From Dictyostelium discoideum (taxonomy: Eukaryota), in NCBI GenBank assembly GCA_000004695.1, contig CM000155.2, forward strand, positions 608,001 through 672,000: a DNA stretch of 64,000 bases, given 5' to 3'. Of the stretch, positions 28,558 through 33,010 are shown one piece after another; the first letter of the stretch is position 1, and each line of letters begins with the position of its first letter. Position numbers and translations under genes: made by a program. The notes beneath the pieces were generated by a model. The model did not search any database. It was given only the letters and a program-made list of their open reading frames with translations, and was not told where the DNA came from.

Positions 28558-31500
28558 ATGTTTAATAATAGTCAAAACCCCGAGTTTAACATTCTATCAG
28601 ATTTGAATGGTTATATTCAACAACTATTAGATATCACACGTCAAGATGGTGGTAGTAATAATGATAACAATACAATAGTTCAAGATAGAAATCCATCACT
28701 TTTAAAAATTTGTTTTTGTGTTGAAAAAATATTAAACAGTGGATTGAAAGGTAAATTATTATTAATAATCTATATTTATTAAAAATTATAAAAATAAATT
28801 AATAATAATAATAATAATAATAATAATAATAATAATAATACTAACATAATATTATTATTATTATTTTAGATGTTAACTTTTTATCAGCAACAGTGATGTG
28901 GGATTTTTTACAAAATTTACCACAATGTTTACCAGATACTGGTAGAATTATTGAAATGTCAAAAGATTGTTCAAAGACATCAGTTGGTAGGGGTAGAGTT
29001 TTAATTAGATTAGCATTGAATGAAGGTCGTTTAGAAGAGTATATCTCTGCATTATGTTATTGTGAAGATGTATTGAAATCATATTATAAAGAGAATGCAG
29101 TTTTAAGAAATCAAGAATTTCTAGGACTATTTCAAGGTTTAATTTCAATGTTATCTCATATTCAATTTAGTTTAGTCGTTAAAGATAAAGATTTAGATAA
29201 ACCAAATTATTGGGAAGATATAGCTTTAACTTTATTAACAAATGTTGATAGAACTATAACAAGAGTTGTTCATCATACAATTATTGAACAAGTACCAGTA
29301 TTAGTTCAAGCACCACCATCAACACAATCAAATGAACAACAAACAGCAACTACTACTACTACTACTACTACTACTACTACTACTACTACTACAGTATCAC
29401 CAGAATTAAATATACCAATAATTGTTCAAAGCGAAGAACAACAACCAAAACCAATAGAAATAGTACAACCACAAATAGAAGTAACAACAACAACAACAAC
29501 AACAACAAATGAAAAACAAACAGAAGAGGAAGAAAAACAAAAAGAAAAAGAAGAAAAAGAAGAAGATGAAGTACAAAAAAAAACAGAGTTAATACCAACA
29601 ACAACACCAACACCAACAACAATAATAACAACAACACCAAAACAATTTACACCAAATACAACAACACCACCATTAACACCAAAGTTAAAATTATTAAAAG
29701 AACAAGAATTTAATAATATTATGACATCATCTACATCATCAATTAGTTTGGAGGAATTAGAGAATGTTTTAACTGAAATTACAACAGAGAATTCAAATAA
29801 TAATAATAATAATAATAATAGTAATAATAATGGTGGTGGTGATGATGATACTGAATCAATAACAAATACTAATATACCACCATTACCAGAATATGAACAA
29901 ATTAAAATTACAGAAGAAGATTTCAAGAGATGGGATTCATTAATTGATCAATTAACAAAGTCAAAGAAAAAGGTGATTTTAGATTTTGGTGCTAAAGGGT
30001 CATCAATGACAAGTACTGATAAATGTTTACAATCATTATGGTATTCAATTGATTTAATTCTAACAAATGAAATTAGATTATCAGATTCTGTTCAATCATT
30101 ATGGGATTGTTTATCATTAATTTCATTAACTGATTATGAAAATAGTATTAATAATAGTAATAATAATAATAATAATAATAATAATAATAATAATAATAAT
30201 AATAATAATAATAATAATAATAATAATAATAATAATAATAATAATAATAATAATATTAAATTACAAGATTATAATGGTGATTATAATTTAAATGAGATTA
30301 TAAAATCAATTGAATCAATTTATTTAAATAATTTTAAAAGGATTAGAGCATTCTATTATTATGGATTTAGTAATAATAGTGTTTCTAATATTAATAATAA
30401 TAATAATGGTCAATCATTAAAATCAAATTTTGTAGATTTCTTAACAAGATTTTTCAATATTTATGATTTTCAAAAATATTCATCATTAATTAGGCTTTAT
30501 AAAAAGAATTCTTTTGTAATGCAAAAAGATTATATGTTAAAATTCTTTGATATTTTAGCTGATATTAATAATACTGTAACTTTTAAATTAAAATGGGATA
30601 AGGATGTTCATACTTTAATTGAAATTCAACAACAACAACAACAACAACAACAACCAATTCAACAACAACAACAACAACAACCACCACAAAAGAAAATGGT
30701 AACTAAAATTATTAAAAAGAAAGTAATCGTAAAGAAAACCATTACTGTACCAAAGAAATTGGATTCAACAACAACAACATCGTCAGGAACTTCTTCAATA
30801 AATTCTGAACAACAACAAGATGAAGAAGAATTAGAAGATGAAAAGAAACAATTAAATGATGGCAGTAGTAGTGGTGGTGGTGATAATTTTGAAAATGGTG
30901 GTGATCTTGAAAAAGAAAAAGAAAAAGATGATGATACAGATATTTCAAAAATTGAATCAATTTTAAATGATGATAATGATAATGATACTACTTTAAATGA
31001 AATTCAACAACAACAACAACAACAGCAACAACAACAACAACAACAACAACAACAACAACAACAACAACAACAACAACAACAACAAAGAGAATTTGAACAA
31101 CCAATTAGAACAGATTCACCACCTTTACAACAACCACAACCACAAAGAATATTAAACTTAACATCAAGTATTGATAGTGTAAATAGTATAATCGATGAAC
31201 AACCAATATCAGCTAGAGATGAAGAAAATAATAATAGTAATAACAATAATGTTAATAATAATAACCTTGTAATAAAATCAACAATAACAACAACAACAAC
31301 AGATAATATAAATGAAAAAGAAATTAAAGAAAATTTAGTGGGTGAAGAATTCGAAGAAGAGAAAAAAGAATTTAGTGAAGAAAATAATACTACTACTATT
31401 AGAAAGAATAATAGTATTGGTAATATTAGTAATGATGGTAGTGAGAAATCAAAAGATGAAGAGGAAATTCAAAAATTAGAGATTTTAATGCATTCTAGAT

Positions 31501-33010
31501 TAGTACCAGAAAGAAAATCAACTTTATCAGAGGTAATGAAAAAAGAAAAAGAAAAAGAGAAATTCATTTCAACCGTTGTTGCTGGTACTTTATCGAAATC
31601 AAATTCTCAAATTGCATTAAATGAAAGTTTTGATAATAATGATATTATTGATAATAGTAATAATAATAATAATAATAATAATAATAATAATAATAATAAT
31701 GAAAATAATAATAATAATAATAGTAATAATACAGTTTTAAATAAAAATAATAGTAATGGTAGTATTAATAGTAGTAATAATGATAATCCAGATGATGTAA
31801 ATTCAGAACATTTTCAAAATTTATTATCAAGTTTAAAATCATCACAAGAACCAATTGAATTTAGATATCAATCAAATCCAACCTATTCATCATATACTGA
31901 TAGTTATACAACCAATGATACATTTTCATCATCTTTTACTCATAATATTGGTAGTTTACCATCATTATCAGATAAATTAAAATCATCCTCTTCAATAGAA
32001 TATCAAATGATTCAAGATTATTTCGATGATGATGATCAAGTTGCTGCTAACGGTAATGGTAATAAAAAGAATAAAAACCCATTAATGGGTGATGATGGTC
32101 AATTATTTAATAATACACTTTATAGAACATCAACTATTAAAGCACAATATCAAAATCAAAGAGTTTGTCCAGATTGTCATATTCAATTGGACAGATTGGG
32201 ATTCTTTAAGATGAAAATTTGTTATTACACTGGTAAATATTATTGCCATAATTGTCATTCTGGTCAAAAATCATTAATACCCGCAAGAATACTTTGGCAT
32301 TGGGATTTCAAATTATTCCCAGTTTGTGATTCCGCCAAATCCTATATCACTCGTAACTTTTCTCATCCATTTGATATTTTCCAATTTAATCCTGAATCAA
32401 TTTCATTATCATCACGTTTAGCTAAAATTTTATCCTTTAGAACTAAACTTCATTTCATTGGTGAATATATAGAAAGTTGTAGAAGTAGAGTAACCTTGGA
32501 TTCTTCTTTACCTCATGTTAATGATTATCTTATCTCTGGTAATGTTAATCTTTACTCTCTAATGGATTTAGATAAAATTAATAGTGGTAATTCTTTAGAA
32601 TTAATAATTCAAGAGGTAATGGAAAAATATATTAATCATGTTACAAATGATTGTATTGTAAGTATTAAAAATATATATATATATATATATATATATATAT
32701 ATATATATATATATATATATATATATATATAAATATATAAATAATAATTAATAATATTAATTTTTAAATTTTAATTTTTTTTTTTTTTAAAAAGACTTGT
32801 AAAGGTAAAGGATTTATTTGTGAATTTTGTGATAATGATGAATTAATATTTTCTTGGATGAGTTTAGATACACAAAATTATTCAAAATGTGATAAATGTT
32901 TCACTCTTTCACACAAGAAATGTTATTCAAAAGATTCATGCCCAAAATGTATTCGTATTTCTAGAGTAAAAAGTCATAGAAATACAACTGTGCATCTTCA
33001 ATTAAAGTAA
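28558..33010 (+). CDS. Rubicon-like protein with an N-terminal RUN domain and a C-terminal cysteine-rich Rubicon-homology domain, 3 exons.
   Basis: Exons: 28558-28750, 28870-32657 and 32795-33010. RUN block: ...LLKICFCVEKILNSGLK|DVNFLSATVMWDFLQNLPQC...GRGRVLIRLALNEGRLEEYI. C-terminal block: CPDCHIQLDRLGFFKMKICYYTGKYYCHNCH...TCKGKGFICEFCDNDELIFSW...CDKCFTLSHKKCY...CPKC. Intron 2 (32658-32794) is almost entirely (TA)28. Confidence 0.75.
31010..31085. repeat. (CAA)n microsatellite, ~25 units, giving poly-Gln in the Rubicon-like protein.
   Basis: Perfect run. Confidence 0.95.

Follow-up and report, generated by a model that had tools for sequence, protein, structure and literature searches.

A tandem RUN and Rubicon-homology domain gene of Dictyostelium discoideum and the polymorphic TA repeat in its second intron

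Proteins that carry a Rubicon-homology (RH) domain combine it with different partners: human Rubicon has a RUN domain, a PI3K-binding domain (PIKBD) and the RH domain, PLEKHM1 has the order RUN, PH, LIR, PH and RH, Pacer (RUBCNL) joins the RH domain to a PIKBD without a RUN domain, and DEF8 joins it to a C1 domain, again without a RUN domain. PLEKHM2, also called SKIP, has a RUN and a PH domain. The PIKBD of Rubicon (Pfam PF21054, RUBC_PIKBD) is the part that binds the Beclin-UVRAG-Vps34 complex, and the partners of RUN domains include Arl8b for PLEKHM1 and PLEKHM2 and Rap2 for RUFY3. Dictyostelium, the organism of interest here, is a standard model for phagocytosis, macropinocytosis and autophagy. 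We describe a three-exon gene of D. discoideum that lies at positions 28558-33010 of a stretch of 64,000 nucleotides (assembly GCA_000004695.1, contig CM000155.2, positions 608,001 to 672,000 of the forward strand), which we call the window and from whose first letter all positions are counted.

In this study, we show that the product of this gene has the architecture RUN-RUN-RH. An earlier note, made from the letters alone, had read the product as a Rubicon-like autophagy regulator with an N-terminal RUN domain and an RH domain; these two domains stand, but a second RUN domain (residues about 408-645) had been overlooked. It is an ordinary, correctly delimited and uncharacterised gene of a well-annotated model genome, and what our analysis adds is the hidden second RUN domain, a PI3K-binding domain that goes undetected, and a placement of the protein among the PIKBD-less RUN-RH proteins.

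Domain architecture of the protein

From its N-terminus the protein is laid out as a first RUN domain (RUN1), a second RUN domain (RUN2), a polybasic motif, a long low-complexity linker of 490 residues and the C-terminal RH domain. The features are:

28708-29183, forward strand: RUN domain 1, residues 51-169, Pfam PF02759, spanning intron 1
29898-30611, forward strand: RUN domain 2, cryptic, residues about 408-645, seen by the orthologue profile, by Pfam in the orthologues and by AlphaFold2 and Foldseek
30699-30725, forward strand: polybasic motif VTKIIKKKV, residues 675-683, after RUN2, seen in the orthologue alignment
31998-32012, forward strand: EYQMI motif, residues 1108-1112, a candidate Atg8-interacting [FY]xx[I] core after Ser/Asp
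32217-32962, forward strand: RH domain, residues 1181-1383, Pfam PF13901, spanning intron 2, with 18 conserved Cys/His

RUN1 matches Pfam PF02759 at 2.8e-22 with 79.7 bits against a cut-off of 22, and the C-terminal domain matches Pfam RH_dom (PF13901, formerly DUF4206 or zf-RING_9) at 2.6e-54 with 184.7 bits against a cut-off of 28.1, over profile positions 2-205 of 206. The HMMER check thus places both domains called in the earlier note well above the Pfam cut-offs. By sequence, the nearest solved RUN domain to RUN1 is that of RUFY3 (2e-12), followed by those of PLEKHM2 and PLEKHM1.

RUN2 escapes a direct search in D. discoideum, where the segment alone gave no match to Pfam RUN, presumably because of a 38-residue poly-Asn insert (encoded at 30141-30259) and a second loop. 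The block is conserved in all dictyostelid orthologues, six of eight orthologue segments match Pfam RUN by themselves (best 1.6e-7), and two RUN stretches are seen in four full-length orthologues. Moreover, the orthologue profile of RUN2 matches the solved RUN domains of PLEKHM2/SKIP (the best, 2.3e-12), FYCO1, RUFY3, PLEKHM1 and Rab6IP1, with values that span 2.3e-12 to 0.019, and the RUN2 HMM cross-matches RUN1 in every orthologue. The AlphaFold2 model of the segment (pLDDT 73, pTM 0.71) loses confidence only at the two insert loops, and the best eight matches in a Foldseek search of the PDB with this model were RUN domains (target-normalised TM 0.59-0.78). The tandem RUN plus RH arrangement is present in a few non-dictyostelid relatives as well.

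Membership of the RH-domain family is secure. The four-cluster zinc fold of this domain has been described (PMC7382272), and about 230 residues of the RH region align at 5e-30 with chain 6WCW, the RH domain of human Rubicon in its crystal structure with Rab7, the Rubicon chain being the sole RH chain matched among PDB sequences. This alignment is gapless at the junction made by intron 2 (...HVTNDCI/TCKGKGFICEFC in D. discoideum and ...HVE-RCMLCQAKGFICEFC in 6WCW, the slash marking the junction). Every one of the Cys/His motifs listed in the earlier note is present, namely CPDCH (residues 1164-1168), CHNCH (1190-1194), CEFC (1336-1339), CDKC (1359-1362) and CPKC (1376-1379). In an alignment of 115 complete RH domains, 18 columns hold Cys or His in 80% or more of the sequences, and all 18 are retained here, from C1164 to C1379. 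The 6WCW alignment also gives the equivalents of seven Rubicon residues whose mutation disrupts co-localisation with Rab7 (PMC7382272):

Rubicon T825, here S1267: conservative change
Rubicon L883, here T1328: non-conservative change
Rubicon A886, here G1331: the Ala is not kept in human PLEKHM1 and Pacer either (Gly and Gln)
Rubicon K887, here K1332: identical
Rubicon F889, here F1334: identical
Rubicon R931, here K1378: conservative change
Rubicon R934, here R1381: identical

These alignments indicate that the RH scaffold is intact and that the surface predicted to face Rab7 is conserved largely, though not fully.

Two short motifs stand outside the domains. Within the polybasic motif, K677, I679 and K680-K682 are invariant across eight dictyostelid sequences, and the motif could be a candidate membrane or phosphoinositide binder or a signal of the nuclear-localisation type. 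EYQMI precedes the RH domain by about 70 residues, at a place where the pattern S-S-x-x-[ED]-[YF]-x-x-[I] is kept in about seven of the eight dictyostelid sequences in an otherwise divergent linker; the protein holds 19 [FY]xx[I] cores, hence the specificity of this match is low.

The named orthologues are those of D. purpureum (XP_003289252), Tieghemostelium lacteum (KYR00061), Cavenderia fasciculata (XP_004362821) and Acytostelium subglobosum (XP_012757084), and these four are labelled by their sources as "RUN domain-containing protein" or as hypothetical protein. A second strain of D. discoideum (GCA_054859355.1) differs from the strain of the window at 1 of 191 positions in RUN1 and at 1 of 260 in RH, which points to purifying selection on the domains. 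Outside homopolymer tracts the two strain proteins are 95.8% identical, and of the 127 gap columns nearly all belong to runs of Thr, Asn, Gln and the like. The strain-variable coding homopolymers lie at 29349-29392, 30141-30259, 31005-31085 and 31633-31787; the second strain lacks 18 Asn in the RUN2 run, 20 Gln, 8 Thr and several short blocks.

Some of the orthologue models have faults of their own. The D. purpureum model XP_003289252 ends wrongly (...SHKNVHQNQMTLAPNV followed by a stop; GL871107.1, about 4430-4530), and the conserved end (...KCASESNDTCPKCLRIAKIK...) resumes in a different frame past an A run that carries a 1-nt shift, whether through an error of sequencing or a genuine frameshift. 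Pfam RH_dom consequently covers just positions 1-192 of 206 in that model. Two other orthologue models, P0005 (1621 aa) and P0006 (2141 aa), extend far past the RH domain into unrelated sequence, P0006 being without the last zinc motifs, and both look like models merged with neighbouring genes.

Relationship to Rubicon and a proposed role

The PIKBD was sought in several ways. Pfam PF21054 gave no match in the D. discoideum protein at E<=1 and none at E<=0.01 in seven amoebozoan relatives, five of which are dictyostelid orthologues. A local PIKBD HMM run with --max found nothing in the D. discoideum protein and only noise, with E of at least 3.9, in three relatives, and an hhalign comparison of the orthologue linker profile with a 17-sequence PIKBD profile returned a probability of 0.05%. 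On the strength of the Pfam, unfiltered local HMM and hhalign results we rejected a PIKBD hidden in the linker. A hidden PH or C1 domain was likewise rejected, as Pfam matched neither in the protein or in any orthologue.

With the part of the RH domain encoded by exon 2 as query, an exhaustive HMMER search recovered 1383 relatives, seven of them with E<1e-30, the four named orthologues being among these seven. A word-indexed protein search with the spliced RH and RUN1 gave no match, though a 65%-identical D. purpureum orthologue is in the same collection, a null that we put down to the index and not to a lack of homologues. Of the 143 non-dictyostelid RH proteins that come nearest, 29 bear a PIKBD (Rubicon/Pacer-type, the first at rank 14), six bear a C1 domain (DEF8-type) and four bear a PH domain (PLEKHM-type, all below rank 81); by simple similarity the RH domain leans to the Rubicon side. 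A neighbour-joining tree of 115 RH domains, built without bootstrap, places the dictyostelids in a clade of 23-26 tips that contains 0 PIKBD proteins and takes in Cavostelium and several RUN or tandem-RUN proteins, the PIKBD proteins lying elsewhere. The RUN1 scores agree with this placement: 108-147 bits against the RUN domains of PIKBD-less RUN-RH proteins and 13-35 bits against those of PIKBD proteins. From these comparisons it appears that the protein belongs to a PIKBD-less RUN(-RUN)-RH lineage and resembles Rubicon in its end domains without being shown to be its orthologue. Since the PIKBD is undetected and the lineage lacks it, direct inhibition of the Beclin-UVRAG-Vps34 complex is not supported. 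Membership of the RH family, as called in the earlier note, therefore holds, whereas the Rubicon mechanism that came with it is only extrapolated (a PIKBD undetected, and an RH domain apart from those of Rubicon and Pacer).

We consider it probable, with some reserve, that the locus is a gene for a RUN-RUN-RH adaptor of the late endocytic pathway, with a neutral TA microsatellite in an old conserved intron. The RH domain would bind GTP-loaded Rab7, and this binding would bring the protein to late endosomes, lysosomes, and maturing phagosomes or macropinosomes. By analogy with the RUN domains of known partners, the two RUN domains may engage a second small GTPase or another partner, in which case the protein would act as a multi-GTPase adaptor.

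There are points that weigh against this reading. Rab7 binding by the RH domain may reasonably be expected, but conservation is the only basis for expecting it, and one key hydrophobic Rab7 contact, L883 of Rubicon, has been changed non-conservatively to Thr. The partners of RUN domains are not predictable from sequence. The tree, for want of bootstrap values, is weak evidence, and the PIKBD is a disordered and fast-evolving domain, so that its non-detection in a low-complexity linker of 490 residues is no proof against PI3K binding. As for the gene itself, the splicing pattern is supported by splice signals, frame, homology at the junctions, conserved position and the second annotation; the exact 1398-aa product is absent from the protein collection, and the public model may differ in detail.

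The main alternative, which we regard as unlikely, is that the gene encodes a functional Dictyostelium orthologue of Rubicon, whose diverged linker would bind the Atg6(Beclin)-UVRAG-Vps34 complex, restrain the maturation of autophagosomes or endosomes and support a pathway resembling LC3-associated phagocytosis (LAP). The order of the end domains, RUN at the N-terminus and RH at the C-terminus, is that of Rubicon; Rubicon is the only RH chain matched in PDB sequences (5e-30); and PIKBD-bearing proteins are both more numerous (29 of 143 against 4 of 143 with PH) and higher in rank (from 14, against below 81) among the nearest relatives. It is possible, too, that a disordered PIKBD has diverged past detection. 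However, PF21054 is undetected both here (E<=1) and in the seven amoebozoan relatives (E<=0.01), the local HMM is null, and the hhalign probability is 0.05%. The RH domains, moreover, group apart from all PIKBD proteins in the tree, RUN1 reaches only 13-35 bits with the RUN domains of PIKBD proteins compared with 108-147 bits with those of PIKBD-less RUN-RH proteins, and there is an additional RUN domain. Within the searchable library, literature searches for Dictyostelium Rubicon, RUN-Rab7 or LAP work returned only passing citations of mammalian studies, with no description of a Dictyostelium Rubicon and no study of an RH-domain protein of this organism. As a RUN-RUN-RH protein with an intact zinc scaffold the product is a candidate Rab7 effector or adaptor. 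Without a detectable PIKBD, a RUN-RUN-RH protein makes the label "Rubicon" unsuited to comparative autophagy gene lists.

A wider evolutionary proposal, which we hold to be distinctly unlikely, is that the dictyostelid RUN-RUN-RH protein represents a pre-metazoan, PIKBD-less form of the Rubicon/PLEKHM proteins that would link Rab7, a second GTPase and, via the [FY]xx[I] motif, Atg8 on phagosomes or macropinosomes. The RH-Rab7 module has been described as metazoan (PMC7382272). If the proposal were true, this module would be older than the Metazoa and its use in adaptors would have come before PI3K inhibition, and a tractable amoeba would offer a Rubicon-independent route to regulation of the LAP type or of the type known as conjugation of ATG8 to single membranes (CASM).

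Gene structure, the TA repeat of intron 2 and the surroundings of the gene

The gene has three exons and canonical splice sites, which is ordinary for D. discoideum, and its coordinates are right; the ATG, the stop, the exon and intron boundaries and the exon phases proposed in the earlier note all hold, the joined coding sequence being in frame. Its parts are:

28558-28750, forward strand: exon 1, with the ATG at 28558, codons 1-64 and the first base of codon 65
28751-28869, forward strand: intron 1, 119 nt, phase 1, GTAAAT...TTTTAG, 4% G+C
28870-32657, forward strand: exon 2, from the remainder of codon 65 to I1327
32658-32794, forward strand: intron 2, 137 nt, phase 0, GTAAGT...AAAAAG, 2% G+C
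32795-33010, forward strand: exon 3, T1328-K1398, then the TAA stop at 33008-33010

The joined coding sequence is 4197 nt with the frame intact and encodes 1398 amino acids, and the N-terminus of the product, MFNNSQNPEF, lines up with the starts of the orthologues. Seven dictyostelid orthologues align uninterrupted over both splice junctions, the RH profile and seven orthologues are continuous over the intron-2 junction (C-I/T-C-K-G-K-G-F), and both junctions are also used in the independent annotation of the second D. discoideum strain (GCA_054859355.1). A TACTAAC box and a (TAA)n run lie in intron 1; its protein position is also that of an intron in D. purpureum, and in C. fasciculata an intron lies close to the equivalent place. 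Ten guessed transcript-derived partial products and the exon-3 open reading frame (ORF) gave no match in the protein collection. Ahead of the gene there is a six-codon upstream ORF (ATG CAT TCA CGC CAA CAC TGA) at 28530-28550, which ends 7 nt 5' of the start codon.

Intron 2 falls between I1327 and T1328, within the zinc motif C1326-x-x-C1329. Exon 3 supplies nine of the 18 conserved Cys/His together with most residues equivalent to Rab7 contacts, and splicing of intron 2 is therefore needed for a working RH domain. Read-through of the intron meets a stop after 25 codons, and neither of its lengths in the two strains, 137 and 94 nt, is divisible by 3. The other dictyostelid genes compare as follows, together with the repeat itself:

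32672-32731 of the window, no strand: (TA)30 microsatellite, a perfect self-complementary tract; (TA)4 in the second D. discoideum strain
Second D. discoideum strain, GCA_054859355.1: intron 2 of 94 nt, same GTAAGT donor, same codon boundary, (TA)4
D. purpureum: intron 2 of 70 nt, same codon boundary, no TA repeat
C. fasciculata: intron 2 of 90 nt, same codon boundary, no TA repeat
T. lacteum (LODT01000016.1, 5594-5659): no intron at the CxxC site

Judging from its GT...AG ends, the restored frame and the conserved position, intron 2 appears to be an ancient phase-0 U2-type spliceosomal intron, and T. lacteum represents a clean intron loss within the Dictyostelia, the intron being old and lost once. 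Nothing is conserved in intron 2 besides its ends.

The earlier note had described intron 2 as pure, or almost entirely, TA and had counted (TA)28. We count 30 copies in the pure run, and this run makes up 60 of the 137 nt of the intron, that is 44%, or 53% with the imperfect extension; the remainder is ordinary A/T-rich intron sequence. TRF extends the tract to 36.5 imperfect copies at 32671-32743 (73 nt). The tract well exceeds what chance would give: a (TA)15 probe finds one site, the tract itself, in the 64-kb window and none in 100 dinucleotide-preserving shuffles, and the window holds one other (TA)>=8 run, of nine copies. The hairpin that the earlier note had suggested is borne out as a prediction, although the effect is modest: the intron-2 RNA is predicted to fold at -36.7 kcal/mol compared with -27.4 +/- 3.2 in shuffles (z = -2.9). 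In the pre-mRNA, (TA)30 would fold as a hairpin and loop out about 60 nt of the intron.

It seems that the repeat is young. The difference between (TA)30 and (TA)4 in two strains, and the lack of any such repeat in the other species, mark it as a recent polymorphic microsatellite, and about 11% of the bases of the D. discoideum genome are simple repeats, which are highly polymorphic (PMC9234386). The most likely account of (TA)30 is a recent, neutral expansion by slippage in the lineage of this strain. We found no sign of a function for the repeat, which has four copies in the second strain and is absent from the introns of the other species. A regulatory role, in which the hairpin would modulate splicing of intron 2 and so set how much full-length protein is made, transcripts that retain the intron meeting a premature stop and being degraded, is highly improbable. 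The hairpin is long and more stable than in shuffles, its tract begins 14 nt from the 5' splice site, and retention would cut the protein ahead of nine of the 18 zinc-motif residues; against this, the second strain has (TA)4, the introns of D. purpureum and C. fasciculata have no such repeat and T. lacteum no intron at all, the intron is conserved only at its ends, and polymorphic simple repeats are exceptionally abundant in this genome. Since E. coli clones do not keep long perfect AT palindromes stably, and such palindromes are difficult to assemble, the length of the tract might be an artefact of cloning or assembly, the true allele differing from 30 copies. This we think very unlikely. The tract is indeed a 60-nt perfect palindrome, short-read contigs of the region break at low-complexity runs, and the sole independent assembly available is of a different strain with four copies. 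The flanks and splice sites, however, are intact and collinear with the second strain, the window gives no hint of a join or gap at the site, and a wrong copy number would alter neither the gene model nor its interpretation. Taken as a neutral microsatellite, the tract may be a strain marker and is an obstacle when the 3' end of the gene is to be amplified by PCR, cloned or assembled from short reads; its importance is practical only.

The 64-kb window as a whole has 24% G+C, with abundant poly-A/T runs and AAT/CAA codon repeats. The RUN-RH gene lies directly upstream of the gene for mitochondrial GUF1, the downstream ORF at 33379-35436 being identical at every residue to D. discoideum AX4 GUF1 (XP_001733053), which marks the window as DNA of AX4 or of a strain nearly identical to it. 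Between the two genes lie (TAA)17 at 33121-33173 and A31 at 33049-33079; the (TAA) run is much shorter in the second strain and is thus a second polymorphic simple repeat within 400 nt. A protein of 2006 aa from that strain, KAM9968905.1 (GCA_054859355.1), joins the RUN-RH protein to GUF1. We rejected such a fusion, the TAA stop and about 370 nt of intergenic DNA being conserved in that strain; it is an annotation artefact, and it places the RUN-RH protein in the GUF1 cluster of the protein collection. Six Logan contigs (SRR26869256-8 and SRR28564540-2) carry GUF1 with the same two mismatches to the window. Their starts vary from 33288 to 33372 and most of their ends fall in genome-encoded homopolymers, and their origin from RNA or DNA is not assignable.

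Comparison with known RUN and Rubicon-homology proteins

The dictyostelid orthologues are the closest counterparts, with the same RUN-RUN-polybasic-RH layout and a full-length identity of 34-53%. D. purpureum has the two introns as well; in C. fasciculata intron 2 is present, together with an intron close to the site of intron 1. The D. discoideum protein differs from its orthologues in being longer through poly-Asn, poly-Gln and poly-Thr tracts, (TA)30 is confined to the strain of the window among the genomes compared, and T. lacteum has lost intron 2.

Human Rubicon resembles the D. discoideum protein in its N-terminal RUN domain, its C-terminal RH domain and all the conserved zinc Cys/His; the equivalents of K887, F889 and R934 are identical and those of T825 and R931 conservatively changed. 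It differs in that the D. discoideum protein has no detectable PIKBD, has a second RUN domain, has Thr for L883 and Gly for A886, and has an RH domain that falls outside the PIKBD-bearing clade in our rough neighbour-joining tree. The D. discoideum protein is also about 40% longer, chiefly through homopolymer tracts. Pacer and DEF8 have the RH domain in common with it, but neither has a RUN domain where the D. discoideum protein has two, and the latter has neither the PIKBD of Pacer nor the C1 domain of DEF8.

PLEKHM1 shares with the D. discoideum protein the presence of RUN and RH in one polypeptide, and a candidate counterpart of its LIR is the [FY]xx[I] motif conserved ahead of RH. The Arl8b-binding RUN domain of PLEKHM2/SKIP is the best solved match of RUN2 (2.3e-12, TM 0.76). 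Unlike PLEKHM1 and PLEKHM2, neither the D. discoideum protein nor any of its orthologues has a detectable PH or C1 domain. Among the described systems, the PLEKHM family is the nearest to the adaptor-type mechanism that we propose for the dictyostelid protein.

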